Shown: positions 7,901 through 50,124 of the stretch, piece by piece
Numbering within the stretch: position 1 is the first letter of the stretch
Layout: the number at the start of each line of letters is the position of its first letter
Assembly: GCA_965231125.1 (NCBI GenBank)
Contig: OZ246414.1
Span: 209,739-273,738, forward strand
DNA length: 64,000 nt
Source: an uncultured Gammaproteobacteria bacterium
GTDB taxonomy: Bacteria; Patescibacteriota; Microgenomatia; Woykebacterales; RBG-16-39-9b
Direction of reading: 5' to 3'
Notes under the pieces: model-generated
Database searches by the model: none
Told to the model about the DNA's origin: nothing
The model's input: only the letters and a program-made list of their open reading frames with translations
Position numbers and translations under genes: made by a program

Positions 7901-8268
7901 CCTATGGTGCAGCCCACACTCTCCAGGAAATGCTGACAATCAAATCTGATGATGTTGTGGGGAGAGCTAAAGCTTTTGAGGCGATTGTTAAGGGAACGGA
8001 AATTCCTGAGTCTACGGTTCCGGAATCATTTAAAGTTTTAGTTAAAGAGCTTAATGGCTTGGGTTTGAAGGTCGAGCTTTTGGGAGCTCAAGTTGAGCAG
8101 GAACACGTGGAGACAGAAAAGGAATTGCAGGAAGAGGAAAAAGTTGAAAAAGAAGCTAAGGAACTTGCGGAGGCCTCGGGAGAAGAAGAAATAGTTACTA
8201 GCCAAGAGCTAGCCGCAGATAAGAGTCTGTCTGTTGAAGAGAGTGTTTCCGAAAAGGGGGCTTCTTAA
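4909..8268 (+). CDS. rpoB: DNA-directed RNA polymerase subunit beta
   Basis: Full-length RpoB homology throughout ([25 protein letters not shown]-like block). ATG at 4909 is preferred over TTG at 4906. Acidic 60-aa C-terminal tail. Confidence 0.97.
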
Positions 8269-8269
8269 T

Positions 8270-11200
8270 ATGAATGAAATTAAAGATTTTGAAGCATTAA
8301 GAATAATTTTGGGTTCGGCTGAGGATATACTAAGTTGGTCTCACGGAGAAGTTACCAAGCCCGAGACCATAAACTACCGAACTTTCAGACCAGAGAAAGA
8401 CGGTCTTTTCGATGAAAAGATTTTTGGACCCACTAAAGATTGGGAATGTTATTGCGGAAAATACAAGAGAATTCGTTACCGCGGAGTTATCTGTGACAAG
8501 TGTGGGGTTGAAGTTACTCAATCGAAGGTTAGGAGAGAACGAATGGGTCATATTAGTCTAGCCGCACCAGTCGCCCATGTTTGGTTTTTCAAAGGTTCTC
8601 CTTCTAAACTGTCTCAACTTCTAGATCTTACCCCGCGGAGTTTAGAAGCGATAATTTACTTTGCACAGTACATAGTTGTCGAAGTTAACGAGGATAAAAG
8701 AAAGGAGGCCTTGGAAAAGGTTGAGGAAAGAATAAAAAAGACAAAAGAGGAGATAAAAGATCAGTTTGCGAAACAAGCTAAGGAAGTGGAAAAGGAAGCG
8801 GAAGCCGAGATAAAAAAATTAGATATAAAAAACAAAGAACAAAAGGAATTAATAATTGAGGAGCTTAATCTAAAAACAAAGGCGCGCCTTGCTTCCTTGA
8901 GGGATGAGGAGGCTAACGAACTGGCAAAAGCTGATGATGAAAGCAAAGTAACTTTAGAAAAAATAAAATCCATTGTACCGGTATCCCTTCTTTCAGAAGA
9001 AGAATATCTAAAATTAACGGATTTTGGAGCCAGCAGTTTCTTAAAAGTAGGCATGGGTGCGGAAGCTCTGGTTCAAATTCTAAAGTCAATTGATTTGGCT
9101 AAATTAGCCCAGCGGCTTCGAGAAGAAGTCCAAAATTACACTGGACAAAGGCAGATAAAAGCAACGAAAACTCTGCGAATTGTTGAGGGTTTAAGGACTG
9201 CCAGTATTGGCTTGGATAGAATGATTCTCAAGTATCTGCCGGTTATTCCCCCAGACCTTCGTCCAATGGTCCAACTTTCCGGTGGACGTTTTGCAACTAG
9301 TGATCTGAATGATTTGTACCGCCGGGTTATAAATAGGAACAATCGTCTGAAGCGTTTAATGGATTTGGGTGCACCAGAAATAATTTTAAGAAACGAAAAA
9401 AGAATGCTTCAAGAGGCTGTGGATGCCTTAATAGATTCTACTCAAAGACCTGTTGGTAGAGCTGCGCCGGCACAGCTGCGTTCCCTCTCCGACATGTTGA
9501 AAGGAAAGCAAGGAAGATTTCGCCAAAACCTTTTAGGTAAAAGAGTCGACTACTCTGGGAGAAGTGTAATTATAATTGCCCCAGATATTAAATTAAATGA
9601 GTGTAGGGTGCCAAAGGAAATGGCACTAGAGCTTTTTAAGCCTTATGTTCTTCGTGAATTAATCTTTCAGGGTTACGCACCCAATGTAAAAAGCGCTAAA
9701 AATGTTTTCGAGAGAAGAGGCGAAGAAGTTTGGGATATACTTGAGGCCATCACTAAAAACCACCCAGTGTTGTTAAACCGGGCCCCAACATTGCATCGGT
9801 TGGGAATTCAAGCTTTTTACCCAATACTTACCGAAGGAAACGCTATCGGTGTTCACCCATCGGTTTGTGCCGGTTACGGAGCAGATTTTGATGGTGATCA
9901 AATGGCAATTCACATTCCTCTATCGAAAGCGGCAATTGGCGAATCCGAAGAATTGATGATGTCAACAAATAATCTTCTGCGGCCGGCTGACGGTGAGCCC
10001 ATAATGACTCCACGGCACGACGTTTTTCTTGGTGTTTATTACCTTACGCACATGCAGGAAGGCGAGCCAAAGGGTTTTTTTGCCGAGGACGAGGCGGTAA
10101 CGGCCTATCAAGCAAATAAAATCTCACTCACCACCCCAATTAAAGTCTGGTACAAAGGTGAGCTGTTGGACACCACCGTGGGTAGAATTCTTTTTAACAA
10201 TATTCTTCCAGGAGAGTTGCAATTTATTAACAATCGGGTAAAAGGGTCCGATCTAAAAAATATTCTAACTTCCTGCCAAAACCTTTTTGGGACAGATCGT
10301 ACCGTTGCCTTAATTGACGATATAAAAGACTTGGGTTTCTATTTCGCTACAATCTCGGGGATATCCATGGCCATAGCCGACTGTGAAATACTTCCAGAAA
10401 AGAAAGGTTTAGTTAGCCAAGCGGATAGGAAAGTTGAAGACATAGAAGGCAACTACCGAAAGGGATTAATTACTCAAACTGAGAAAACCCGTCTTACCGA
10501 AGAAGTTTGGGCGGATGTAACGGCCCAAGTTGATGAAAAAACATGGAAGGCGCTGAGAAAAGATAATCCCTTGCGAATTTTGCAAGAATCTGGTGCCCGT
10601 GGTTCTCGCGACCAGATAAAACAGCTAGCCGGTATGCGTGGTCTAGTAGCGGACCCACTTGGTAGAATTGTGGAACTCCCATCGAAAAGTAATTTTAGGG
10701 AAGGATTAGATGTTTACGAATACTTTACTTCAACCCGAGGGGCCCGAAAAGGTTTGGTAGACAAGGCTCTTAAGACGGCTGATGCTGGTTACTTGACTCG
10801 TAGATTAGTAGACGTTACGCACGATGTGCTTGTCCGCGAGGATGATTGTAAAACCAAAGAGGGAATTAATGTATCTGAAAGTGAGGAACGAACCACCGTA
10901 CTCGCAAATAGAATATTTGGTCGCACCCTTGCAAGGGATTTAATTGATGATAGAGGAAAAATTATCCTTAAAAAAGGTGAACAGATTATTGATAATAATT
11001 TCGAAAAAGCTAAAGCCGCTAAAATTTCAACTGTTTTTATCCGGTCTACCCTTACTTGTGAAACCAAGTACGGCGTTTGTATAGCTTGTTACGGGATCGA
11101 TCTTTCTACCAAGAAACCAGTTAAAATCGGTACACCCGTTGGTGTTATCGCGGCTCAATCTATCGGAGAACCAGGGACCCAGCTTACAATGCGTACTTTC

Positions 11201-37988: not shown

Positions 37989-38504
37989 ATGCCGAGAACT
38001 AAAAAAAGTACAGTTGAAAAGGTAGATAAAGAAAAGGCCAAAGACACTCTCACGACCGAGAAAAAAACGGCTGAACAAAGTGAAGTTAAAGAAAAAGCCA
38101 AGGCGAAAGAAAAAAAGGAATTTTTTCAAGGACTTGGAAGAAGAAAAGAGTCTATTGCTAGGGTGCGCCTCTTTCTTAAAAAAGGTGATCTTTTGGTAAA
38201 TAATAAACCGATCTCCGAATATTTTTCTGAAGCAGCCGCCCAAAAAGTTTACGAAGAACCGCTTCGCACTGTTAACCGGCTTGGTCAAGTCTCCGGGACT
38301 ATAAAAGTTCGAGGTGGGGGTAGAGTTGGCCAACTTGGAGCCGTCACCCACGGAATTTCCAGGGCCTTGCTTGATCTGGACGAGAGTTTTCGAGCTACCC
38401 TTTCAAAGAAAAAACTTCTAACTCGAGATTCCCGTGTCAAAGAGAGGCGTAAATACGGCCACGCTGGTAAAGCTAGAAAAATGAAGCAGAGTCCGAAACG
38501 TTAG
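37989..38504 (+). CDS. rpsI: 30S ribosomal protein S9 with a ~40-aa K/E-rich N-terminal extension
   Basis: GLGRRKESIARV...C-terminal ...AGKARKMKQSPKR. Confidence 0.93.
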   Translation: MPRTKKSTVEKVDKEKAKDTLTTEKKTAEQSEVKEKAKAKEKKEFFQGLGRRKESIARVRLFLKKGDLLVNNKPISEYFSEAAAQKVYEEPLRTVNRLGQVSGTIKVRGGGRVGQLGAVTHGISRALLDLDESFRATLSKKKLLTRDSRVKERRKYGHAGKARKMKQSPKR

Positions 38505-38695
38505 TATTTGTTGTGGAAGATCGCTTGGTAAAGAAAGAGGATACCAACTAGTCCAGGTAGTAGGGATAAGAGTTCGAAGAAACGGATGTGGATTTGACCA
38601 ATTAGCAAGGCGATTAGCAAAAGCACAAACCCCCAAACAAAAGTTGGAATTCTTTTAATGACCACCCAGTTTATATTCCTTAACCATTCCTCCAT
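38501..38695 (-). CDS. possible small hydrophobic protein (64 aa, 2 TM)
   Basis: Convergent with rpsI, 4-nt overlap, no clear RBS. Confidence 0.25.
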   Translation of the reverse strand: MEEWLRNINWVVIKRIPTFVWGFVLLLIALLIGQIHIRFFELLSLLPGLVGILFLYQAIFHNKY

Positions 38696-38828
38696 ATTTA
38701 CATTATATCAAAGTAACAAATCTGCTTTTAAACCCTGTAGTTGATTAACGTTTACTAAAGGATTAATATGTAAACAATCGAAAAGACTTTTTAGTAAGTT
38801 CGATCAATCAAAAGTGAAGGAGAAGGTC

Positions 38829-40049
38829 ATGGATAGAGTCGTTGTGACTGGTAGAGGGGCAGTCTGCCCTTTGGCAAACAACTGGCCTGATAGTTGGGCG
38901 GCAATGCTGCAAGGGCGCTCTGGTATTGGCCCACTCACAAAGTTTGACGCGCCTTGGTTCGAAGCCGGAATTGTTGGTGAAGTGCGTAATTTCCATCCGG
39001 AGGAAGTTATCCCTGGAAAAGTTTTAAAGAGAGCGGCGATTCCTAGTCATTACGCACTTGTTGCTACTCACGAAGCAGTTGCCGAGTCGGGGCTGGTAAT
39101 TAACGAGTCGAACACAGAAGATGTGGGAGTGATCTTTGGCTCGGCGGGTGGAGGGTACGAACGTATTTTGAAGCAGGAGCATGTCCTTTTTGAAGAAAGT
39201 GCTCGACGCGTTAGCTCATTTACAATCGCCCACATGTTACCAGATGCTTCTTCCGGGCACATCGCCATTGCGCTTGGGGCAAAAGGACCAAACTACTGCC
39301 CGACCGCTGCCTGCGCTACCGGAACAGTCGCAGTTGGCGAAGCCATGGAGACAATCCGTCGCGGCGATGCCAAAGCCATAATTTGCGGTGGTACAGACGA
39401 GCCGATTCTGCCGGTACTGCTTGCCGGATTTCAAGCTTTAAAAGGCATGGCGACGGAAGCTTGCAGGCCTTTCGATCTACGTCGTGACGGTTTTGTTGTC
39501 GGCGAAGGGGCGGCAGCACTAGTGCTAGAAAGCCTGGACTTTGCGAGAGCCCGCGGTGCCCGCGTCTACGCGGAAGTTGTTGGCTATGGTTCAGCGGCTG
39601 ATGCCTTCCATATGGAAAAGCCGGATGAGTGGGGAGATGGGATCGGTCGGGCTATGGTAATGGCCTTACGAAAAGCAGATATTTCACCTGAAGAAGCCGA
39701 CTACATAAATGCGCATGGGACTGGTACGCCGTTGAACGACAAGGTGGAGACATTAGCCATAAGGAGCGTCTTCGGCTCGCATGCGTACGAACTTGCTGTC
39801 AGCTCAACGAAGTCGATGGTCGGTCATCTCATGGGTGGTGCTGGCGCTCTTGAGGCGTTGGCAACAGTTAGCGCAATTAACGACGAAATGATCCCGCCGA
39901 CCATCAACTACGAAACGCCGGATCCGGAGTGTGATTTGGATTATGTACCAAATACCGCCCGCCGAAGAAAGATAGATGTAGCGTTGTCCAACTCGCTTGG
40001 TCTTGGTGGGCACAACGCTTGCGTAGTCTTTAGGAAATTTGAGGGTTAG
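38829..40049 (+). CDS. fabF: beta-ketoacyl-ACP synthase II-like condensing enzyme
   Basis: Cys-His-His triad contexts (AACATG, AHGTGT, GHLMGGAG). AAGGAG RBS 8 nt before ATG 38829. GC about 50-52% versus about 40% in the flanks. Confidence 0.88.
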   Translation: MDRVVVTGRGAVCPLANNWPDSWAAMLQGRSGIGPLTKFDAPWFEAGIVGEVRNFHPEEVIPGKVLKRAAIPSHYALVATHEAVAESGLVINESNTEDVGVIFGSAGGGYERILKQEHVLFEESARRVSSFTIAHMLPDASSGHIAIALGAKGPNYCPTAACATGTVAVGEAMETIRRGDAKAIICGGTDEPILPVLLAGFQALKGMATEACRPFDLRRDGFVVGEGAAALVLESLDFARARGARVYAEVVGYGSAADAFHMEKPDEWGDGIGRAMVMALRKADISPEEADYINAHGTGTPLNDKVETLAIRSVFGSHAYELAVSSTKSMVGHLMGGAGALEALATVSAINDEMIPPTINYETPDPECDLDYVPNTARRRKIDVALSNSLGLGGHNACVVFRKFEG

Positions 40050-40067
40050 GTCAGATAACAGAAATCA

Positions 40068-40103
40068 AAACGGGTGTTCACACGAATGCCCGTTTCTTTT
40101 TTC
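40068..40103 (+). terminator. rho-independent terminator after fabF
   Basis: AACGGG...CCCGTT stem followed by TCTTTTTTC. Confidence 0.6.
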
Positions 40104-40164
40104 TATAAATATTTTTTCTTCCACACTTGGAATTATACTCTATAAGTATTTAAAATTTCAGCTA

Positions 40165-40193
40165 TTGACAAATGCAAATGATTTGCATATAGT
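40165..40193 (+). promoter_or_regulatory. zur promoter TTGACA-17-TATAGT with an embedded 17-nt perfect palindrome ATGCAAATgATTTGCAT (Zur/Fur-box-like operator)
   Basis: The palindrome at 40173..40189 overlaps the spacer and the -10. Confidence 0.6.
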
Positions 40194-40255
40194 TAGCCCA
40201 CGTAAGTGGTCGCAGAACGTGAAGCGATCTATTGCAAGTCAACTACACCTACATT

Positions 40256-40684
40256 ATGCAAAAAGACGTCTTAGAAATATTAAAAGAAAATAAAATAAAA
40301 ATTACCAACGAGAGAAAGGAAATTATTTCAGTTCTTCAAAGTACAAAATTCCCCCTTCGTCCAGCGGATATATTTTTAAGGATTAAGTCAAAGTTGCCTA
40401 AGGCCAACTTGACAACAGTTTACAGAAATTTAGAAATGTTGGAAGGTTTAAGTTTAATTAAAAAGTTGACTTTCGATAAAGACAGTTTCTCTTATGAATT
40501 AGTAACAAACCGGCCCCACCACCATCATGTTGTGTGTAAAAACTGCGGTAAGATTGAAGATTTAAATAATATTCCAGAAAAATTTGTCAAAGAAATTTCG
40601 GAAAGCACAAAATTTAAAATCGAAGACCACAACTTAGAATTCTTTGGTATTTGTGAATCCTGCTCAAAGGAGTTAAACAGATGA
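40256..40684 (+). CDS. zur: Fur-family metalloregulator, probably Zur
   Basis: HHHH...CxxC...CxxC motifs, winged-helix N-terminus, and immediate linkage to znuACB. Confidence 0.8.
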   Translation: MQKDVLEILKENKIKITNERKEIISVLQSTKFPLRPADIFLRIKSKLPKANLTTVYRNLEMLEGLSLIKKLTFDKDSFSYELVTNRPHHHHVVCKNCGKIEDLNNIPEKFVKEISESTKFKIEDHNLEFFGICESCSKELNR

Positions 40685-41598
40685 GTAACAGAAAATTGCT
40701 TTCGCTGATCGCGCTTATTATTTTAGTTCTGTCAGCGGGGTATTTTGTTTTCCGAAACTACCACCCTTCAGAAAGTTCCGGAAAGTTAAAAGTGGCAACT
40801 AGTTTCTACTCACTTTACTTTTTCACTAAGGAAATTGGAGGAGACAAGGTTGATGTTACCAACATTACTCCGGCTGGAGCAGAACCGCATGATCATGATC
40901 CTTCAACAGGTGACATTGTTAAGATTGAAGAAAGCAAAATGCTGGTTCTCAATGGTGCAGTAGAATCTTGGGGACACAAGATTAAGGACATTTTGAAGGG
41001 AAGTAATGTCCTGGTAGTTACTGCCGGAGAAGGTTTGCTAACCAAACAACTAACTGAAGGTGGGCAGACTGGTGTGGACCCGCACGTTTGGCTCGACCCT
41101 ATATTAGCCAAGCAAGAAGCTCACGCGATTGCCCAAGGATTGATTAAAGTCGATCCAGCTGACACTACCTTTTATCAACACAACGAAAAGAAACTCGACG
41201 GCGAGCTTGATCAGCTGGATCAGGATTATAGAAAAGGTTTGGTAAGTTGTCAGCAAAAAGACATTATAACTTCTCACGCCGCCTTTGCTTATCTTGGCTC
41301 TCGCTACGGGCTTAACCAAGTAGCAATCTCTGGTCTTTCGCCAGATGCTGAGCCATCAGCCGCCCAACTAGCTGATGCAACCAACTTTGCCAAATCGCAC
41401 AACGTTAGATATATTTTCTTTGAGAGCTTGGTCAGTCCAAAGCTCTCCGACACCATTGCTAACGAAGTTGGCGCGAAGACATTAGTTCTTGATCCGATCG
41501 AAGGTCTGACCGATAATGATATTAAGGCAGGCAAGACCTACTTTACGGTGATGCAAGACAATCTAAACAATCTGCGTATCGCTCTGTCATGCAAATAG
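40681..41598 (+). CDS. znuA: metal (zinc) ABC transporter substrate-binding protein, ZnuA/TroA family
   Basis: Cluster-9 SBP homology with a short His/Asp-rich loop (PHDHDP). Confidence 0.85.
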   Translation: MSNRKLLSLIALIILVLSAGYFVFRNYHPSESSGKLKVATSFYSLYFFTKEIGGDKVDVTNITPAGAEPHDHDPSTGDIVKIEESKMLVLNGAVESWGHKIKDILKGSNVLVVTAGEGLLTKQLTEGGQTGVDPHVWLDPILAKQEAHAIAQGLIKVDPADTTFYQHNEKKLDGELDQLDQDYRKGLVSCQQKDIITSHAAFAYLGSRYGLNQVAISGLSPDAEPSAAQLADATNFAKSHNVRYIFFESLVSPKLSDTIANEVGAKTLVLDPIEGLTDNDIKAGKTYFTVMQDNLNNLRIALSCK

Positions 41599-42338
41599 AT
41601 CACAGCAAAAGTATTATTGAAGTTGATAAAGTTTCCTTTGCTTATAACGGTGAAGATGCGATTAAAGACGTGTCAATAGCCGTTCACAGAGGAGATTACT
41701 TAGGAATAATTGGTCCTAATGGCGGTGGGAAATCAACATTATTGAAAATAATGCTTGGGCTTTTGCACCCCAAAGAAGGAGTAATTAAACTTTTCAATCA
41801 GTCTATTGATGAATTTAAGGATTGGTCCAAAATTGGTTACGTCCCTCAAAAACCACCGAATTTCGAATTAAATTTTCCAGTGAGTGTTCGAGAAGTAGTC
41901 GCCATGGGTCGTTACGGAAAACGTGGTTTATTACGGTTTCCGACCAAAGAGGATGGAGAAAAAGTTAACAAAGCCTTGAGTCAAGTTGAAATGACAGAGT
42001 TTGCCGGTCGGCAAATTACCGAACTTTCGGGAGGACAGCAGCAAAGAGTTTTTATTGCCCGGGCACTAGTGAGCGAACCAGAGGTAATCTTTCTCGATGA
42101 ACCAACTGCCGGAGTTGATATTAAAACCCAAAAGAGTTTCTACGCACTGCTTGAAAAATTAAACCGAGATTTCGACCTCACTTTAGTTCTAATTTCCCAC
42201 GAACTTGACGTTTTGGCCCACGAGGCTACTGAACTGGCGTATATAAACAGAACTCTTGAGTATTACGGCGACCCAAAAGAATTTTTGAAGGGGGACTATT
42301 ACCACCAGTTTATTGGCAAGGGAGAGCCTCACCACTAA
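41589..42338 (+). CDS. znuC: metal ABC transporter ATP-binding protein
   Basis: Walker A GPNGGGKST, signature LSGGQQQRV, Walker B FLDEP. Confidence 0.9.
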   Translation: MQIDHSKSIIEVDKVSFAYNGEDAIKDVSIAVHRGDYLGIIGPNGGGKSTLLKIMLGLLHPKEGVIKLFNQSIDEFKDWSKIGYVPQKPPNFELNFPVSVREVVAMGRYGKRGLLRFPTKEDGEKVNKALSQVEMTEFAGRQITELSGGQQQRVFIARALVSEPEVIFLDEPTAGVDIKTQKSFYALLEKLNRDFDLTLVLISHELDVLAHEATELAYINRTLEYYGDPKEFLKGDYYHQFIGKGEPHH

Positions 42339-43132
42339 TGCTTTCGATTTTCCAATACAGTTTCATTGTGCGTGGTTTTGAGGCCGGCGTCGTCGTCGCC
42401 TTAATTGCTCCGTTGATTGGAATTTTTTTGGTGCTGCGTCGCTACTCTTTGATCGCCGATACACTAGCACATGTTTCGCTAGCTGGAGTGGCCATTGGGT
42501 TGCTTTTAAAGGTGAGCCCATTAATTACCGCTATTATTGTATCTGTTGCGTCCTCAGCCGCTATTGAACGTTTGCGTATTTCCAAAAAAGTTTATGGAGA
42601 AAGTGCCCTTGCAATTTTTCTTTCCGGAAGCTTAGCGTTAGCAATTGTTCTGATTAGTGCGGCCCATGGGTTCAATATTGATATCTTCAACTATCTCTTT
42701 GGATCAATTTTGACAGTGAGACAGACTGATATTTACCTTATCGCTTCCTTAGGAATAGTGATTTTGGTAGCAGTAGCGGCCTTTTATAAGGAATTACTTT
42801 TCGTTACTTTTGACGAGGAGGCGGCAGCTGTTAGCGGAATTCCGACTCGGTTAATCAATACAATGCTGATCGTCTTGGCTGCTTTTACAGTCGCCTTGGC
42901 AATTCCAGTAGTTGGAGTTTTGTTAATCGCGGCTTTGATCGTAATTCCAGTAGTAACTGCCCTCCAATTTAAAAGGGGTTTCAAACAAACTATTCTTATT
43001 GCGGAAGCAATCTCAGTTTTCTCGGTAATAGCGGGAATATTCACCTCTTTCTACTTAAATCTTTCCGCAGGTGGAACTATAGTCTTAATTGCGTTAGCAA
43101 TATTTTTAATTGCGTTAATTATTAACGATTGA
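42338..43132 (+). CDS. znuB: metal ABC transporter permease
   Basis: ZnuB/TroCD-type permease homology. Confidence 0.88.
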   Translation: MLSIFQYSFIVRGFEAGVVVALIAPLIGIFLVLRRYSLIADTLAHVSLAGVAIGLLLKVSPLITAIIVSVASSAAIERLRISKKVYGESALAIFLSGSLALAIVLISAAHGFNIDIFNYLFGSILTVRQTDIYLIASLGIVILVAVAAFYKELLFVTFDEEAAAVSGIPTRLINTMLIVLAAFTVALAIPVVGVLLIAALIVIPVVTALQFKRGFKQTILIAEAISVFSVIAGIFTSFYLNLSAGGTIVLIALAIFLIALIIND

Positions 43133-43157
43133 AAAAACCGTTTGTTATAATTAGTTT

Positions 43158-43529
43158 ATGGGCAGTAACGTTGAGATAAACGATACTTTACAGATTTCAA
43201 AAGAACAAGGTTTCCCGGGGGAATTAGATTTCGAAAGACACAAAGAAAAACCTTTTACAGCGGAGGATTTTAAGGAGAAAGTTTTTGAATTCAAAAACAA
43301 AAAGGGTGTGCGGATTTATAAAAGTCCGCCAGTCCGAAACTTTTTAGTTGAAAATAAAGCCGGCAAGTGGCTTTATTGGGGGTTGATCTATATCTTAGAG
43401 GTGACTAACAATTACGAGAAACAAATAACCTCAGGAAAGTATAAAATAATTTACATATATACACCTGAGGAAATGAGGCAGGCCCATAAATTGATAGATA
43501 GAGATCACGAAACAGGTTTTTTTGACTAA
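43158..43529 (+). CDS. hypothetical protein
   Basis: 123 aa, no recognisable motif. Confidence 0.45.
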   Translation: MGSNVEINDTLQISKEQGFPGELDFERHKEKPFTAEDFKEKVFEFKNKKGVRIYKSPPVRNFLVENKAGKWLYWGLIYILEVTNNYEKQITSGKYKIIYIYTPEEMRQAHKLIDRDHETGFFD

Positions 43530-43594
43530 ATTTATTTAGTTTCCGTCAACCGATATCTGCCTTCGCACCCGTAATCTTTTTACAATAACCGCTC

Positions 43595-43623
43595 TTGACT
43601 AAAATTTGATGCCAGAGTACAAT
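43595..43623 (+). promoter_or_regulatory. sigma70-like promoter TTGACT-17-TACAAT for the cupredoxin gene
   Basis: Consensus spacing, 25 nt upstream of the ATG. Confidence 0.5.
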
Positions 43624-43647
43624 TAGTTTTTGCAAGAAAGGTAGCAC

Positions 43648-44082
43648 ATGCGAAATATCATCATTGGTGTAATAATAATTGTTTTGATAATAGTTGGTGT
43701 ATGGTACTTTTCAGGTAAGAACAAAGGGTACAATACCCCAACTAACAGCTCGCAGAACCCATCTACTTCAAGCAGCCAAACCAAGTCTAACCAGACTGGC
43801 ACGACCCAAAAGCAATCTCAAGCATCTACCAGTGCTGTTACAATCCAAAACTTTGCTTTTAGCCCGGCGGACATTACCGTCAAAAAAGGTACTAAGGTGA
43901 CTTGGACCAATCAAGACAGCACTGCCCACACCGTAACTGAGACGGATGGTCAAAATGGGCCGGGTAGCGGTACTTTAAACCAAGGACAAACTTATTCTTT
44001 CACTTTTGACAGTGTTGGTACGTTCCACTACCACTGCTCGATCCACACTAGTATGACAGGTATGGTGACTGTTACCGAATAA
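43648..44082 (+). CDS. plastocyanin/azurin-type cupredoxin, membrane-anchored with a Ser/Thr/Gln-rich linker
   Basis: Type-1 copper ligand set: H in TAHTV and C, H, M in HYHCSIHTSMTGM. Confidence 0.8.
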   Translation: MRNIIIGVIIIVLIIVGVWYFSGKNKGYNTPTNSSQNPSTSSSQTKSNQTGTTQKQSQASTSAVTIQNFAFSPADITVKKGTKVTWTNQDSTAHTVTETDGQNGPGSGTLNQGQTYSFTFDSVGTFHYHCSIHTSMTGMVTVTE

Positions 44083-44273
44083 CACCTGGCAAAGCCTTTA
44101 TCGGGCGTTCTATTCTTTGCAGATTTAACTAGATTTATGATGAGACATTGCTTTGTTTATGTCTGCGTTAGCACCGGCCAGCTTAGCCGCCTTTAGTGAT
44201 TAGTTGAATGGTAATGTAATCTAGCGCAGCCATTTTTTGACAATAGGTTGGTGGTTATGGAAGGGAATCCAAG

Positions 44274-44294
44274 CCGGCCTTGATGAGCCTAGAC
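44274..44294 (+). repeat. island repeat family, short form (D1)
   Basis: CCGGCCTTGATGAGCCTAGAC overlaps the stop of the DoxX-like gene and resembles repeat C. Confidence 0.5.
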
Positions 44295-44609
44295 TTCATT
44301 AGGATTGAGAAACAGATAAACTGGAACGGCTAAGATGCCGATATGTTCTAAAGTGTCGCCTACACTACCAAACCCAGAGACAAGGATCACCCCAATTATC
44401 CAGGCGGCAGCGTAGACAGAGACATATTTTCGGAATAAACCTAAAATCAGGAGAATACCAACTAGACCATCACTTACTCCGATTAGCTTTACAATGGTCT
44501 CGGCCGAAAAAGGTACCACACTAGTTAAAAAAGAATTTTTAACTAATTCTGTGAATTCATCAGGCGCGAAAAAAGCAGTGTAAGAGTTGGCTATAAAAAT
44601 CAGACCCAA
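44289..44609 (-). CDS. DoxX-like small membrane protein (the ORF stays open upstream to about 44690, so the true start is uncertain)
   Basis: Several hydrophobic helices; TTG start in the track. Confidence 0.4.
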   Translation of the reverse strand: MGLIFIANSYTAFFAPDEFTELVKNSFLTSVVPFSAETIVKLIGVSDGLVGILLILGLFRKYVSVYAAAWIIGVILVSGFGSVGDTLEHIGILAVPVYLFLNPNEV

Positions 44610-44734
44610 GCCGACGCCGATTATTTCCGGGGAAAATTTTTTCAGGTTTTGAATAATAATCGGTTGCCTCCAAGTAAAGATTAGTAACAGTTAATTATAT
44701 TTGGAGTATTTTGAAAAAAGCAAGCTTTATTAAA

Positions 44735-44760
44735 CCGGCTGGCCTTGATGGACTCCTCAC
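44735..44760 (+). repeat. island repeat family (D2)
   Basis: CCGGCTGGCCTTGATGGACTCCTCAC, similar to the 5' parts of repeats A and B. Confidence 0.5.
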
Positions 44761-44912
44761 TAGATTTGTGATATAATTCATTTATTGACAATTTAATATT
44801 TACTGGACGTTGAAAGGCATCTAGTAACTGGAGTTGAATGTTTAAGTAAGTTGTCATTGCGTGACCCGCCCTGAAATCTTGGACATCGAAACCAGTTGTC
44901 GGATGCCTTTTT

Positions 44913-45263
44913 TTGTATCTTAATCTTAACAAAATTATGATAGATTATAAGTTTTTACCGAAAGATTTAAAGCAATACCTCGGGCCCAATTACAATTGGA
45001 TAATTGCTTCCGGAGAAAGTAAGTTAACTGCTAAAAATCAGACCAACGATTTACGTTCGATTCTTAATTCAATTGGGAGATTTAACTACGCAGATTTTAG
45101 AAGGTTCATTCAAATAAAACGGGAATTAGGTGAATCTAATCTATATTTAAACTCCCGTATTTTGGGAGCGAGGCAATTTGCGCAGTTTTTGAAACAACAA
45201 GAATTTGCTGTTGACGCGCAGCTTTTAACCTACCCTATCTTCAAGCCTGAGTTAGTTCATTAG
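44913..45263 (+). pseudogene. 5' fragment of a tyrosine recombinase/integrase (N-terminal SAM-like core-binding domain only)
   Basis: About 116 aa matching the integrase N-terminal helix pattern (LTAKNQTNDLRSILNSIG...FRRFIQ...LGARQFAQFL). The catalytic R-K-H-R-H-Y domain is absent, and the ORF stops 12 nt before repeat A. Confidence 0.55.
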
Positions 45264-45275
45264 GTATTTGAATTT

Positions 45276-45357
45276 CTGGTTGGCCTTATTGGACCGCACT
45301 TCGTTGAAACTTCGCGCGGCTGGCGATTTGGAGGAACCTCTGGCCTCAATTAAGTTC
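45276..45357 (+). repeat. island repeat family, long form (A, ~82 nt)
   Basis: About 80% identical to B over its length (GGCCTTATTGGACCGCACTTCG...GGCGATTTGGAGGAACCTCTGGCCTCAATTAAGTTC). Confidence 0.7.
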
Positions 45358-45391
45358 TTTTGATTTTTCTCCTATACACCTAAACCATTTC

Positions 45392-45847
45392 TTAGGTTGC
45401 TAGCTCTTTACTAAATTTTGTGAAAATTCTTCTAATTTCCCTTTCAAGCCTCTCCTGTGTTATTCCGTTTCGATTGGCTTCTACAACAATAATAGCTAAT
45501 TCGTAAAGAGATTCTCTAGGAATTGTGAAATCAACCCCATGAGCTAATAAAAATACATGTGTAGAAAGAACGGCTGTTCTTTTGTTACCTTCAAATAAAG
45601 GGTGTTCGCAAGCTATCTTAATAAAATAGGCAACTGCGGCGTTTAAAACTGTGGGTTTTACATACTTATTAACAATAGATAGTTGAACTGAGCCAAGAAT
45701 GCTTTCTAGTTTCCCGGGGGTTCTACGGTCGAAAGGTTCAGTTGGGTCGCCAAGACTAATCTGCAAGTTCTCGTAGGCGGTCTTGTAAATCTCTACTGTT
45801 AGATAATTCTTTGGGGGTAGAGTCAGATTCTTTATCATATTTTTCAA
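45392..45847 (-). CDS. doc: Doc (death-on-curing) Fic-family toxin
   Basis: Fic/Doc motif HPLFEGNKRTA and N-terminal GDPTEPFD..PGKLESILGSVQ. Confidence 0.8.
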   Translation of the reverse strand: MKNMIKNLTLPPKNYLTVEIYKTAYENLQISLGDPTEPFDRRTPGKLESILGSVQLSIVNKYVKPTVLNAAVAYFIKIACEHPLFEGNKRTAVLSTHVFLLAHGVDFTIPRESLYELAIIVVEANRNGITQERLEREIRRIFTKFSKELAT

Positions 45848-45926
45848 GCAGCTCGTAAGTTTTGCGGTATTTTTTTATGCTGTGATTAATATTTTTTTGG
45901 ATTATCTTTTTCTCGGAAGTTGTCAT
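45756..45926 (-). CDS. candidate antitoxin partner of Doc (56-aa unlisted ORF)
   Basis: ATG 45926 to TAG 45756, MTTSEKKIIQKNINHSIKKYRKTYELLEKYDKE... It lies immediately upstream of doc and overlaps it out of frame by about 90 nt. No family assignment. Confidence 0.3.
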   Translation of the reverse strand: MTTSEKKIIQKNINHSIKKYRKTYELLEKYDKESDSTPKELSNSRDLQDRLRELAD

Positions 45927-46090
45927 ATGTAGCAGTATACTACAATTCTACAAATAAAGTGAAAATCAAGCAACACTTGACAGGTTTATGCTTTATCACC
46001 AAAGTGCTAGAATAACACCTTGCAGGTGATGTTTTTTGACAAAATAACACTCTAGCGAGTGATGTTTTCTCATCAATTAATGATTCGAAA

Positions 46091-46321
46091 ATGGCAGCTA
46101 TGAAAATTAAAAATTTATTATTGAAAATTATTCTTTCGCTTCTCGGTTTAATTATTCTTACCATTGTTGGCAGCCTTCTTTATTTGAGATTAAGCTGTAA
46201 GGCTATTCAAATTATCAAGACTCATAAGGGCAATACACAATATTCAATAATAAGCCAGCGGGGAGATTCTCACGAACCAGCAAGTTGTAGTGGATTTCCG
46301 GTGGTAGTTGGAATGGAATAG
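46091..46321 (+). CDS. possible small membrane protein
   Basis: 76 aa with one hydrophobic helix; weak support. Confidence 0.25.
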   Translation: MAAMKIKNLLLKIILSLLGLIILTIVGSLLYLRLSCKAIQIIKTHKGNTQYSIISQRGDSHEPASCSGFPVVVGME

Positions 46322-46356
46322 TATTTTTAGAAAAAGAGACTCAGGCACGAATTTCA

Positions 46357-46381
46357 TTGGTCGGCCTTGTTAGGCTCAGAC
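46357..46381 (+). repeat. island repeat family, short form (C)
   Basis: TTGGTCGGCCTTGTTAGGCTCAGAC. Its first 15 nt are identical to the start of B, and it contains a GTTAGGC core. Confidence 0.65.
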
Positions 46382-46412
46382 AGTTGGCGGGGCCCAGTGG
46401 CGAGCTCAGTCC

Positions 46413-46778
46413 TCAGCTCACCGCTTTCTTCACGAGCGCGCCGATCTTTGCCTCTTCGGCGGCAGTCAACCCCTTCAGCGCGAAGGCGATTGGCCACATG
46501 TGGCCTTCGTCGAGGTTCGCCTCGTCGTTGAAACCGAGCGTCATGTACCTCTCCTTGAACTTCTCCCCGCCGCGGAAGAAGCAGATAACCTTGCCGTCCT
46601 TGGCATACGCGGGCATCCCGTACCAGACCCTCGGCGAGAGGGTTGGCGCGCTCTCTTTGATGATAGCATGGAGCCGCTCGCCCATGGCGCGATACGGTCC
46701 CGGCATCGCGTCGATCGCCGCGAGCACCGCGGCCTCGCCGTCGGCCTTCTTCGTCGCCTTCTTGTCGACTACTTGCAT
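46413..46778 (-). CDS. DUF1801/YdhG-like protein, strongly GC-rich (probable horizontal acquisition)
   Basis: About 60% GC against a ~40% background. DUF1801-like pattern ([25 protein letters not shown]...[17 protein letters not shown]). Confidence 0.7.
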
Positions 46779-46929
46779 ATAGGGTTCCTTTCTACTGCGA
46801 TTAATATTTTTGTAAAACCACGTTAATTGGTATTAAAGTTATTGTCAATGGTTTTAGTATGAGTTCCAAAAACGTTACTATCCCCACAGAAAAAGAAGTT
46901 TCTGTCGAAAATATTTAGCTTCAAAAACC

Positions 46930-47015
46930 TTGGTCGGCCTTGTTGGACTACACTTCGCTAAAGCTCGCGTAGCAGGCGATTTCGAGGAACCTCTGTCCGC
47001 AATTGAGCTCGTTAG
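46930..47015 (+). repeat. island repeat family, long form (B, ~86 nt)
   Basis: TTGGTCGGCCTTGTTGGACTACACTTCGCTAAAGCTCGCGTAGCAGGCGATTTCGAGGAACCTCTGTCCGCAATTGAGCTCGTTAG. Confidence 0.7.
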
Positions 47016-47027
47016 TTAAAACACAGC

Positions 47028-47720
47028 TTATTCAGATTTACCGCCCGTTGTTAAAAGCCGGTCGTGATTATATCGGAGTAACATTATCCCAATAAGTAGA
47101 GCAAAGCCAAATAAATACCCGCTAATTACATCGGATAACCAGTGTAGGTGTAGATAGATACGAGACGGGCCAACTAACAACACGACAGTTAACTCGACTA
47201 ATAGAAGCATTAAACGAAGTTTTTTATTTTTGATGTACAACAAGGTAAGAATTGCTAAATAGCCAAAGAAAACAACGTATGAAGCAGTATGGCCCGAAGG
47301 ATAACAAGTCTCGTGCCAAAAAGTTTTTTGAAGAAAGGAAAGATTGAACACCTCGTGAAAGGAAACAATTTTGCTAAAGGGAGAAGCTGGGCATTCTACT
47401 CGAAAGATGAGTTTTACCACGAATTCAGTTAAAAACCAGCCGGAAAAGCTCAATGGAAGCATTTTTGCTTCAAAATTATTCTTCTTGCGACGGAAATAAA
47501 CAAACAGCCATATTAAAACACCTACAATTGGCACATAGAGAAAAGCCAGAAACCTAGAAACATAATAAAGGAGATTGTTCAGTGAGAAAGGTAGGTTTTG
47601 GTTAAGATAAACGTCAATCGGTGTTAGTTGCCCACTCATTACTATAAAAGTGAATACGACAAAGGCCACAAGAAGCAGGCAAAAAATAATTGAATAGGTG
47701 CTGTACTTTAGAGAAAGCAT
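47028..47720 (-). CDS. PAP2-family membrane phosphatase
   Basis: PSGH and SRxxxxxHxxxD motifs (YPSGHTA; SRIYLHLHWLSD); 6 TM. Confidence 0.75.
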   Translation of the reverse strand: MLSLKYSTYSIIFCLLLVAFVVFTFIVMSGQLTPIDVYLNQNLPFSLNNLLYYVSRFLAFLYVPIVGVLIWLFVYFRRKKNNFEAKMLPLSFSGWFLTEFVVKLIFRVECPASPFSKIVSFHEVFNLSFLQKTFWHETCYPSGHTASYVVFFGYLAILTLLYIKNKKLRLMLLLVELTVVLLVGPSRIYLHLHWLSDVISGYLFGFALLIGIMLLRYNHDRLLTTGGKSE

Positions 47721-47810
47721 TTGATGCTATTTTGGATTTTACACCAAAAATGCTAGAATAACACCCAACGCTACTAAAGTTATGCTGGGCGATCCCACAT
47801 TTCACCAAGG

Positions 47811-48236
47811 CTATTTATGATGCTTTTGAAGAAATTTTTTTGGGGTTGCTATCTGAATTTTTGGAATTATCCTTTGCGATTCTTCAGTTAGAATGTGTTT
47901 TCTATCCAGACTAACTAAAAAATCTGACTTGGATTCTTGGGCTGAAATAAGAATGTGCCGATCTTTTTGATCTATGTCTTTTAATTTCTCAAGCTTTTCT
48001 TCCTCCGGAAAAGGTAAAATTTTGAAGTAATCTTCTTCCAGCCAGTTTAGAAACAGTTGATATTTTTCTTGATTTAATTTCCTTCTGATAGCTTCTTCGG
48101 ACTCTGCCACCACACCTTCATTTATCCAACCGTCAAGTTTCCCTTTCTCTATCAGATTAATTATTTCAAAAGAGCCGCCGGTTTGTGAACCAGCGGCAGC
48201 AACAATTACAGAGGAGTCTAGGAAAACCTTTATCAT
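47811..48236 (-). CDS. PIN-domain toxin (VapC-like)
   Basis: N-terminal VFLDSSVIVAA and acidic residues consistent with a PIN fold. ATGA overlap with the upstream antitoxin. Confidence 0.65.
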   Translation of the reverse strand: MIKVFLDSSVIVAAAGSQTGGSFEIINLIEKGKLDGWINEGVVAESEEAIRRKLNQEKYQLFLNWLEEDYFKILPFPEEEKLEKLKDIDQKDRHILISAQESKSDFLVSLDRKHILTEESQRIIPKIQIATPKKFLQKHHK

Positions 48237-48454
48237 TCTAACTTATCTTCTTCAAGAAAACTCTCTATCTCTTTATCAGTGTATTTCCGCAAATATTTGG
48301 TTGGAATACTTTTCAGCGGCTTAATTATGAGTTCGCCTTCTTTAATACTTACATCAAGGAGAGTATTTTCATCTATCTCTAGTTGTTTGCGAAAGGTCGC
48401 AGGAATAGTAATTTGGCCCTTTGGTAATGGTTTTACAACTTCGGAAGTCTTCAT
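48233..48454 (-). CDS. AbrB/MazE-type antitoxin (VapB-like)
   Basis: SpoVT/AbrB swapped-hairpin pattern KGQITIPATFRKQLEI. Confidence 0.65.
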   Translation of the reverse strand: MKTSEVVKPLPKGQITIPATFRKQLEIDENTLLDVSIKEGELIIKPLKSIPTKYLRKYTDKEIESFLEEDKLE

Positions 48455-48498
48455 ATAGTTAGAATTTTAGAATTTCTAACTTTCTTTGTCAAGTATGT

Positions 48499-48572
48499 TG
48501 GTCGGGGAGGAGGGAATCGGACCCACGATACCGCACCCCCAGCGCGGTGTATTACCACTATACTACTCCCCG
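48499..48572 (-). tRNA. tRNA-Pro (anticodon GGG), CCA encoded
   Basis: 7-bp acceptor stem CGGGGAG/CTCCCCG, D-arm GTAT-AGTGGTA-ATAC, anticodon loop CTGGGGG, discriminator A plus CCA. One T-T mismatch in the T-stem and C55 in place of U. Confidence 0.75.
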
Positions 48573-48659
48573 AATGAAGTCATGGTGAGATTGAAATTAT
48601 ATCCGTTTTTGTGTTACTCTTCAAATGTAACCTTTGCATTGTAGAATTTATCTGCCTAT

Positions 48660-49571
48660 ATGGATTTTAGTCAATTAATTTCAGAAGCTTTTAACATCAC
48701 TCGTAGAAATCGGGCGCTCTGGATCTTCGGAGCAATATCCGCAATTTTTGGCGCCGGTCCACCCTTCATAAATTTCATCTTTAGTTTTCCTACCAATTTC
48801 GGCACGTCGAGTAACATGAATGACTTTCAAAACTCAATGTCTACGAACTTTGACTTTTTGAAATACATAGATTCATCGGTTTGGGCCACCATTGTAATCG
48901 CCGGATTGATAGCGCTCTTAGCGATAAGTTTCTTTTTTCTCTACGTACAAATTTGGTCCTTTGTTGCTCTTGTAGCGCAGACTCTTGGGTTAACTGAGGG
49001 CAAAAGTGTTAGTTTTAGGCAAGCTTGGCAAATTGGTGAGAAATATTTTTGGAGAGTAGTTGGGGTTTGGTCTATACTCTCTTTAATAGTTTTGCCGCCA
49101 ATTATTCTTTTCATTGCCCTCCCTGTAATGTTTTTTGTAGCTGGATTAAACGTTTTTGCGCTGATAATTGGGGCAATAGAGGTTTTAATTTTTATTGTCG
49201 CATTAATGCTTTACTTGATAGTTGCGAGTATTATGGTTGAATTTAGTGTCCGGAAAATTGTGGATAGTGATACAGGAGTTTTGGAATCTATCAAAGAGAG
49301 TTGGTGGCTTTTTAGAGGAAGTTCCGGTAAAAGTTTTCTCGTTTGGCTGGTGAATGTTGCCCTAGGATTTTTCTTGGGTTTTGCGTTTTTGCTTGCCAGT
49401 GCCGTGTTTTTCTTTATTGGGGTTGCCGCTGTCGCTATTAGTGTTTGGCTCGTCGTATTGCCCATAGTAGGTTTTGTCTTAACAATTATTTTTATTAGTA
49501 TGCTCTGGAGCGTCTTTTCTACTTCTTATTGGACACTCGCTTACAGGCAGTTGTCGAAAGGAACAGAGTAA
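48660..49571 (+). CDS. hypothetical polytopic membrane protein
   Basis: 303 aa, about 6-8 TM, no motif. Confidence 0.55.
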   Translation: MDFSQLISEAFNITRRNRALWIFGAISAIFGAGPPFINFIFSFPTNFGTSSNMNDFQNSMSTNFDFLKYIDSSVWATIVIAGLIALLAISFFFLYVQIWSFVALVAQTLGLTEGKSVSFRQAWQIGEKYFWRVVGVWSILSLIVLPPIILFIALPVMFFVAGLNVFALIIGAIEVLIFIVALMLYLIVASIMVEFSVRKIVDSDTGVLESIKESWWLFRGSSGKSFLVWLVNVALGFFLGFAFLLASAVFFFIGVAAVAISVWLVVLPIVGFVLTIIFISMLWSVFSTSYWTLAYRQLSKGTE

Positions 49572-49572
49572 A

Positions 49573-50124
49573 ATGCAAGATAATGTCCCACCTGTAGTTG
49601 CGCCGGTGCCAAATCAAATGCGACCTCAACCAACTCCACCAGCTTTCCAGGAACAAGTGACTCCTGCCGCTCCTGTTGCTACTGCATCAGTAGCTACAGA
49701 AGTACCTGCGGAGTACGCCAGTTTTTGGCAAAGGTTCGTAGCTTCATTCGTCGATGGGTTATTAATTATTTTTGTGAGTTTCTTTTTAATCTTTATTCTT
49801 GGCGGAATTTTTAAGCCGCTTCGTGAGGGTAGTGGGCTTGCTAATATTTTAGGCTTTCCTATTTTATTAATTGCCTGGGCCTACCATGTTTATATGGTGG
49901 GAAAGTATGGGGCTACTCTTGGTAAAATGGCGGTTCATATAAAGGTTATAGATGAGAATTATCAAATTCCGACTTTTGGCAAGGCAGGGTTAAGAGAAAT
50001 AATTGGGAAGTTTGTCTCTGGCATTATCCCATTATTCATTGGTTACCTCTGGATGTTGTGGGACGATAAGAAGCAGACGGTGCATGATAAAATTGCCAGT
50101 ACGTACGTAGTTAAAGTTAAGTAA
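49573..50124 (+). CDS. RDD-family membrane protein
   Basis: RDD-like pattern (GATLGKMAVHIKVID...R) with a Pro-rich N-terminus. Confidence 0.7.
   Translation: MQDNVPPVVAPVPNQMRPQPTPPAFQEQVTPAAPVATASVATEVPAEYASFWQRFVASFVDGLLIIFVSFFLIFILGGIFKPLREGSGLANILGFPILLIAWAYHVYMVGKYGATLGKMAVHIKVIDENYQIPTFGKAGLREIIGKFVSGIIPLFIGYLWMLWDDKKQTVHDKIASTYVVKVK

Follow-up and report, generated by a model that had tools for sequence, protein, structure and literature searches.

The island described here lies beside a proline tRNA gene in a 64,000-nucleotide stretch of DNA (contig OZ246414.1 of assembly GCA_965231125.1, positions 209,739 to 273,738; the whole stretch is hereafter the window), from an uncultured bacterium whose GTDB lineage falls in the Woykebacterales, a group of the candidate phyla radiation (CPR). 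Between positions 44100 and 48600 the window carries a block of mostly minus-strand genes inside a stretch otherwise on the plus strand. The block is 4.4 kb long and is limited by a cupredoxin gene (43648-44082) at one end and by tRNA-Pro(GGG) at the other (48499-48572, minus strand; detected by ARAGORN, 55.5 bits with the Rfam tRNA model). Apart from this tRNA, an Rfam scan of 43000-50000 at E<=5 returned nothing. Two Logan contigs are 100% identical to the window and one contig of the Joint Genome Institute (JGI) is 99.92% identical, with the same island in all. The modules of the island are separated by copies of a repeat whose eight-base core, TTGGTCGG, also occupies 48498-48505, where it consists of the tRNA 3' end plus one base and forms the anchoring core of the array.

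A sequence-only reading of this DNA had placed five related sites in the block, and all five were found at the positions given, on the plus strand and in direct orientation. Their cores or core equivalents lie at 44270-44277 (copy A, CAAGCCGG), 44735-44742 (copy B, CCGGCTGG), 45276-45283 (copy C, CTGGTTGG), 46357-46364 (copy D) and 46930-46937 (copy E), the last two being exactly TTGGTCGG; the statement that the repeats begin with the 8-mer of the tRNA end thus stands for D and E and fails for the other copies. The degenerate motif proposed for the sites has four occurrences within one mismatch against 0.1 expected, the pattern having been derived from these very copies. Similarity extends significantly past the GGCCTT core: the two long copies said to be about 80% alike, C (45277-45360) and E (46931-47013), share 79.8% identity over 84 nt (blastn E=1e-15), and D agrees with E at 18/20 nt. 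A family profile built from the copies of four genomes recovered C (E=1.5e-21), E (2.8e-19) and D (3.4e-4, over the first 32 positions only); B scored below significance (E=3.2) and A was undetected. No further copies were found elsewhere in the 64-kb window.

Each junction is composed of a variable left arm, the 8-bp core and a right arm of about 100 nt, the whole unit measuring some 110-170 nt. The core is the reverse complement of CCGACCA+A at the tRNA 3' end, comprising the last three bases of the acceptor stem, the discriminator base, CCA and one further base, and TTGGTCGG is common to junctions and tRNA end in every CCA-encoding genome; in the related locus L005 the identity with the tRNA extends to 13 nt, TTATCTTGGTCGG. 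Left arms fall into two or more types. Type I spans about 65 nt and contains GAAGTCCGATTCTCCTCAACCC, the full arm being present in only four copies, and type II is TTAGGTTCAAAAA. The GAAGTCCGATTCTCCTCAACCC segment matches the T-arm and acceptor of tRNA-Pro at 17/22 positions, in the orientation opposite to the resident tRNA, and the score of this inverted partial tRNA was reached in no more than 1/2000 shuffles for the best copies, with weaker values for some pairings of copy and tRNA. In two relatives (LejiaB and L022) the left arm also stands directly to the left of the tRNA, so that the internal junctions are attP-like (left arm-core-right arm) and the tRNA junction attR-like (left arm-core-tRNA).

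The right arm occurs in a short and a long form, the latter with a 30-nt insert directly after GGAC. Within this insert (window 45293-45330 and 46947-46983; lejRC 13984; L022 798) a 4-bp helix covaries between copies, with the pairs CTAC/GTAG, CCGC/GCGG, CCAC/GTGG, CCCT/AGGG and CCCA/TGGG, and in a LejiaB copy the insert is in frame. An invariant 19-mer, TTGGTCGGCCTTGTTGGAC, is identical in the species of the window and that of L005. Resemblance between the right arm and the body of tRNA-Pro is weak and depends on the tRNA chosen (17/22, p=0.001 with one tRNA; not significant with others). Two other origins were considered and set aside. The repeat is not a 3' fragment of another tRNA, as judged by inspection for T-arm and acceptor pairing and by ARAGORN, which gave no pseudo-tRNAs, and the likeness between the right arm and the beginning of the DUF7544 gene (GATTTTAGTC) was put down to coincidence.

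Seen against this plan, the copies in the window are in different states of repair. Profile and translation identify C (45259-45400) and E (46912-47051) as full long-form junctions, the small open reading frame (ORF) of the right arm being frameshifted in C and bearing an in-frame stop and a divergent tail in E. Copy D (46340-46376) is truncated to the proximal left arm (left-arm profile E=0.008), the core and 12 nt; the rest of its right arm is deleted, the full arm is kept at the syntenic site of L005, and L023 has a different deletion. Copy B (44731-44770) is a decayed member of the family, as shown by a recognisable copy at the syntenic position of locus L014 (120-200, E=1.2e-11); L005 has a syntenic copy as well, at ~7769. 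The family membership of copy A (44266-44300, CAAGCCGGCCTTGATGAG) is unproven. It is degenerate, differs from the proposed motif by one mismatch, abuts the stop codon of a DoxX-like gene and could mark the distal end of the island. As the copies are decaying, by frameshift in C, stop in E, truncation in D and heavy divergence in B and A, the array in the window is probably old and largely fixed.

The cargo of the window runs, from the distal end, through a DoxX gene, a gene for a recombinase core-binding domain, a Doc toxin-antitoxin (TA) module, a DUF1801 gene, and a PAP2 gene with a PIN/AbrB pair. The first encodes a DoxX/MauE-like membrane protein of 106 aa (44289-44609, minus strand; Pfam DoxX E=2.5e-4, below the curated cut-off). 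The Fic/Doc toxin (45392-45838/45847, minus; Pfam Fic E=4.5e-7) is preceded by a small ORF (45756-45926, minus) presumed from its position to be the antitoxin. Then follow the PAP2-family phosphatase (47028-47720, minus; Pfam E=9.7e-15), the PIN toxin (47811-48236, minus; PIN_3 E=2.1e-9) and an AbrB/MazE-type antitoxin (48233-48454, minus; MazE_antitoxin E=8.9e-10). The DUF1801 gene (46413-46778, minus; recognised by Pfam and by composition) is a clear foreign acquisition, with ~65% GC in a genome of ~38%. It is present in the arrays of all four Woykebacteria compared (L005 9415-9849; L023 9497-9919; lejRC 1-430), the window gene being 78-92% identical in nucleotides to those of L005, L023 and lej. 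Each of the two Logan assemblies is interrupted within the gene, the contigs ending at window positions 46435 and 46597. The cargo had been described as lying entirely on the minus strand; this does not hold, since the core-binding-domain gene (44937-45263) and a 76-aa ORF (46091-46321) are on the plus strand.

Homologues of the protein encoded at 44937-45263 led to arrays in related genomes. One of them, P0005, lies in the syntenic locus L005 (GCA_001816985.1), where the order is PPDK, the island, tRNA-Pro(GGG) and RecA, with repeat copies at 7178, ~7769, 8378, 9190 and 9899. An exact scan of 185,579 species genomes for the 19-mer added three loci. The Woykebacteria metagenome-assembled genome LejiaB_42_22 has eight full copies within 15 kb, all pointing the same way, with tRNA-Pro(GGG) at the end of the array; a second locus of the same genome (L021) has two; and a contig labelled Gammaproteobacteria (L022; CAYIWY010000001.1, 136001-144000) has three, together with tRNA-Pro and a Woykebacteria-like recA. 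The tRNA-Pro of this last contig is 98.7% identical to that of L005, and the contig is probably mis-binned or mislabelled. In a close relative of the window organism (L023), four copies are followed by tRNA-Pro, DUF7544 and RDD, and the Rifle contig L027, from a more distant relative, has a single copy at the distal edge of a 4.4-kb island that terminates at tRNA-Pro and RecA. E-values between 1e-19 and 1e-31 were obtained for profile matches in the window, L005, L014, L021, L022, L023 and the LejiaB contig. The repeat is therefore found in Woykebacteria and their relatives, where the sequence-only reading had proposed to look for it, and in six contigs (window, L005/L008, L023, L022, L027 and LejiaB) all copies stand on one side of tRNA-Pro(GGG) in one orientation. 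A 19-mer match in a Planctomycetota locus (L018) was dismissed as chance. Pattern scans and two peptide-profile scans of viral contigs gave no relevant matches, L004 having matched only by chance, in coding sequence rich in GC. Dispersed repeats such as miniature inverted-repeat transposable elements or repetitive extragenic palindromes were also discarded, given the lack of copies elsewhere in the 64-kb window and the confinement of the exact 19-mer in LejiaB to two places.

Between these arrays the junctions persist and the genes change, so that gene order is not conserved among relatives as it would be in an ancestral, non-mobile block. The L005 order is ParE/Phd, the core-binding-domain gene with DUF5674 and a 94-aa ORF, DUF1801, and a 201-aa ORF. 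In L023 it is DUF1801, a 137-aa ORF, CopC with cupredoxin, and a 399-aa ORF. LejiaB has eight modules, including Nudix, DUF218, PIN/AbrB, deformylase, dehydrogenases, CopC with cupredoxin, and GNAT. The CopC-cupredoxin cassette of LejiaB (8143-9464) matches that of L023 (10866-12191) at 83% identity over 1326 nt; the homology begins exactly at the core, and the two cassettes occupy different array positions. Similarly, the left flank of copy E is homologous to L023 as far as the invariant 19-mer, after which arm and cargo diverge: in the window the DUF1801 cassette with its left arm leads into a long right arm and PAP2, in L023 into a short right arm and another gene. LejiaB also has the ParE/Phd module known from L005, together with a partial copy of the repeat, in inverted orientation on the other side of the tRNA. 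Since related genomes have the same junctions with different modules, the array region is, on these comparisons, a gene-swapping hotspot across the lineage, situated between a ribosomal-protein block and recA, the latter adjoining the locus. The interval from ribosomal protein S9 to recA varies in content among CPR genomes (window 38500-44100 against L023 1500-9460 and L027), and because the whole of it differs, the array bounded by repeats is only part of the variable region. Searches for exact matches to the PAP2, Doc and flanking-gene proteins returned the same context only and no alternative ones.

These observations bear out the suggestion of repeated integrations at the tRNA 3' end: the arrays are anchored there in one orientation, the 8-bp core is shared, the cargo differs, and the same cassette is met at different positions. 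With moderate confidence, we interpret the island as a stack of integrative cassettes that lack an integrase and have accumulated at the 3' end of tRNA-Pro through site-specific recombination, catalysed by an enzyme acting in trans. The 4.4-kb block would then consist of five small modules of 0.5-1.6 kb, each with its attP-like junction. A module would be inserted when the core on its circular form recombined either with that of the tRNA or with that of any internal junction, and recombination between two direct cores would excise one. Repeated gain and loss over time would yield arrays that differ in content and order between relatives. The data establish the repeat family and its anatomy, its tie to the tRNA, the turnover of cargo among genomes and the absence of hairpin structure; the chemistry and the circular intermediates are inferred, and so is the enzyme, which we take to be a tyrosine-type recombinase encoded elsewhere.

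The right arm has a second property that must be accommodated. Nine intact copies, read from the TGG of the core, encode WSALLDDIRNLWPQLNSFDFS..NL.RF(L/F) over about 40 codons with 0 stops, and the other five frames contain 5 to 23. In the plus frame of the right arm the ratio of nonsynonymous to synonymous polymorphism (pN/pS) is 0.28, third codon positions account for 48% of the diversity (permutation p=0.018), and Arg and Ser swap codon families between copies; the right arm thus varies in the manner of protein-coding sequence. Searches with profiles against 5.8 billion and 1.84 billion proteins returned only ORFs of 39-84 aa, several of which start with ATG at or near the core (for example MSALLDEIRNLWHTINSWEFSPANVGRFLNSYPAFAISGSSF). 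No long parent protein was present in either library. These searches give no support to the repeat as the C- or N-terminus of a long protein, such as a split integrase of the type found in the Sulfolobus spindle-shaped viruses (SSV), and that reading was rejected.

Such a signature might suggest that the repeat is simply a functional gene encoding some 40 aa, or else that it serves the convergent gene, whose stop codon the unit usually abuts, as a regulatory or 3'-end element, and that it was duplicated along with its neighbours, the likeness to the tRNA being incidental and the array owing nothing to integration. The open frame, its substitution pattern, the free-standing small ORFs with ATG starts and the position at the stop codon all speak for this account. 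We nevertheless regard it as quite unlikely. The ORF is mostly dead in the arrays, where most copies lack a start codon and others are interrupted as described for C, E and D, and an orthologous pair of array copies gives a pN/pS of 0.69. The first 36 nt are invariant, synonymous sites included, which argues for a role at the level of DNA. Moreover, polarity, tRNA anchoring and cargo turnover would all be left unexplained.

The sequence-only reading had also likened the units to integron cassettes with attC-like sites, which an IntI-like enzyme would recombine as folded single strands. The resemblance is real as far as it goes: cassettes of one to a few genes are bounded by related sites in one orientation, GTTGGAC and GTTAGGC fit the GTTRRRY consensus as had been claimed, and in some copies CAGAGGTTC in the left arm can form 9 bp with GAACCTCTG in the right arm. 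The GTTRRRY cores, however, have neither an RYYYAAC inverse partner nor a hairpin. None of the five copies, taken as single-stranded DNA, folds better than shuffled sequences (z from +0.65 to +1.78 for C and E, both strands), full units with their left arms fold inconsistently (z from +0.4 to -2.3), and RNAalifold, applied to eight short-form copies from relatives, gave a consensus of -3.7 kcal/mol with 0 covarying pairs. Nor is the cargo a series of promoterless cassettes in one orientation: genes lie on both strands in the window, L005 and LejiaB, and two modules of the window share a promoter-like motif upstream. The anchor is a tRNA end in place of attI, and neither intI nor another catalytic recombinase gene turned up among the array and array-flanking ORFs tested, most of the window being unscanned. 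Since it fails on two defining features, we reject the integron reading and hold it to be highly improbable even in a looser, integron-like sense.

The gene at 44937-45263 (plus strand) had been taken for a tyrosine-recombinase fragment; it is no local truncation but a conserved ORF of 108 aa with homologues of similar length. Nine homologues, of 104-118 aa and all from Candidatus Woykebacteria, mostly end at about the same point, the two most divergent stopping a few residues earlier. Pfam gave no match for the protein and it has no catalytic domain. Its AlphaFold2 model (pLDDT 83) resembles in Foldseek the N-terminal domains of XerA, Brujita Int, lambda Int, IntI, XerD and Cre (TM 0.5-0.68, best E 0.014), and it is classed as a standalone tyrosine-recombinase core-binding (SAM-like N-terminal) domain protein. 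With a ratio of nonsynonymous to synonymous substitution rates (dN/dS) of 0.23-0.34, it is under purifying selection. The gene is placed within the array, just upstream of a junction. It ends at a conserved stop of its own, and its reading frame is not that of the right-arm ORF. Because it has this stop and is absent from L023 and LejiaB, we count it as cargo and not as an enzyme of the platform. A scan of genome contigs with the alignment of the protein gave no matches and a metagenome scan gave three loci; an ORF of 108 aa in L027 proved unrelated. One nucleotide of the gene is deleted in the JGI version of the strain (window 44966 against L001 6309), and the resulting frameshift is either an assembly error or a real pseudogene variant.

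No integrase was present in any unit among the ORFs checked across the loci compared. To the Pfam searches reported below can be added 15 LejiaB translations, read by eye only, which showed no recombinase. A rve-family (DDE) transposase is encoded in L027 (8590-9276, minus strand), and that island, which extends from the small ORF to tRNA-Pro, also has an HNH endonuclease and no tyrosine recombinase.

Several findings weigh against the interpretation as stacked cassettes. Pfam detected no catalytic recombinase domain among 15 window ORFs in or near the island and five larger ORFs of the LejiaB array. Identity with the tRNA is limited to 8 bp, and classical tRNA islands leave copies of 17-50 nt. 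The right arm has a coding signature, which an att arm does not need. In L021 the two copies flank a 3-kb block with no tRNA nearby. Finally, the near-identical strains (99.92-100% identity) have the same array, and no presence/absence variant, empty site or circular form was seen, so that these strains gave no hint of recent mobility. On the other side, a relative of recombinases that consists of the core-binding domain only is situated inside the array and directly upstream of a junction.

The main rival draws on several of the same facts. Homology-driven exchange would dispense with a dedicated recombinase: the units of ~110-170 nt would be no more than a repeated small gene or sequence lending portable homology, and RecA-dependent recombination from copy to copy, and also with the DNA of relatives by way of the conserved tRNA/RecA flank, would shuffle the modules. 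Copies are 80-95% identical over ~100 nt and include the invariant 19-mer, recA is next to the locus, the ORFs checked contain no recombinase, the array copies are under relaxed constraint as judged from the orthologous pair, and one array (L021) has no tRNA. What homologous recombination between repeats leaves unexplained is the presence of the eight terminal bases of the tRNA at the start of each unit, the left arms at the tRNA junction, and the polarity of the arrays with their tRNA-Pro end in six contigs; 8 bp of homology at the tRNA junction is, in addition, too little for RecA. On balance we consider this rival unlikely. We entertain as a tentative possibility that the arrays represent an undescribed, integron-like platform for gene capture, in which the tRNA-Pro 3' end would serve as the entry site, the composite junctions would recombine as double-stranded DNA under an unlinked recombinase, and the small ORF or the core-binding-domain protein might act as accessory or directionality factors.

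Two further elements of the island may concern the expression of its cargo. The promoter-like motif mentioned above is 28 nt long (..TGCTAGAATAACACC) and occurs at 45992-46019 and 47738-47765, both on the plus strand and upstream, in the minus sense, of the doc module and PAP2, respectively. Its two copies are 82% identical (blastn E=0.02) and may represent a shared promoter or operator. Upstream of the 108-aa gene lies a structured leader (44807-44915, plus strand) with a long hairpin and a U-run, preceded by TTGACA. The predicted RNA has a minimum free energy of -39.6 kcal/mol (z=-4.3), and its nucleotide conservation in L005 and L014 is at least that of the coding region. The leader has no Rfam match; it may function as an attenuator, in the manner of a riboswitch, or as a small RNA.

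How CPR bacteria, with their tiny genomes, acquire accessory genes is poorly understood, and a hotspot of this type offers a concrete and testable route of gene gain and loss. The stacked cargo includes TA pairs, copper proteins, Nudix hydrolases, dehydrogenases and a foreign GC-rich gene. The junction itself is unusual for a tRNA island in sharing 8 bp with the tRNA, containing a small ORF with a coding signature and having no integrase in cis; the enzyme, once found, could reveal a new pairing of recombinase and site. Even if the array is only a fossil, the repeat would help to mark where islands begin and end in CPR metagenome bins.

Comparison with known systems places the arrays between several of them. 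With integrons they share a polar array of small cassettes, related sites, a cargo rich in TA modules and accessory enzymes, and a content that varies among relatives; they differ in having no attC hairpin, no intI found, no attI/Pc, and the tRNA 3' end as anchor. Xer/dif modules (integrative mobile elements exploiting Xer, and pdif modules), whose 28-bp site has two 11-bp inverted arms around a 6-bp spacer, were excluded by inspection, there being no such dyad at or around TTGGTCGGCCTTGTTGGAC. Archaeal integrases of the SSV type and their part in gene capture were reportedly treated by She et al. in 2001. In that type the split ORF is the integrase itself. Here too an ORF crosses the att core and would be cut from its upstream part by integration, and trapped elements would pile up at a tRNA, but the profile searches yielded small ORFs and no long parent protein, and the 108-aa gene is not in the frame of the right arm.

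Accretion of cis-mobilizable elements (CIMEs) is said to have been examined by Pavlovic, Bellanger and colleagues. In Streptococcus, CIMEs are flanked by att sites, lack recombination genes of their own, and accrete with integrative and conjugative elements (ICEs) or integrative and mobilizable elements (IMEs) at tRNA and other att sites (PMC5704250). Our arrays would resemble them as att-flanked elements without recombination genes, placed in tandem by site-specific accretion under an integrase that we suppose to act in trans. They differ in that CIMEs usually stand beside an ICE or IME as the source of integrase, whereas no such partner was seen here, and in their length of up to eight units. 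The islands that tycheposons build in Prochlorococcus are likewise tRNA-adjacent, successive integrations at the same site pushing older elements inward, and contain decayed elements, fragmentary integrases and extra att copies scattered within (Hackl et al., bioRxiv 10.1101/2020.12.28.424599). Their repeats are partial tRNAs, and many of the elements keep a tyrosine recombinase (Hackl et al., bioRxiv 10.1101/2020.12.28.424599). The arrays described here have in common with them the streamlined genome and the tRNA-adjacent island, and depart from them in the 8-bp tRNA identity, the junction of 110-170 nt with its small ORF, modules of 0.5-4 kb, and the lack of a catalytic recombinase in the array ORFs tested. 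Tycheposon-built islands and CIME accretion are the closest analogues of these arrays.

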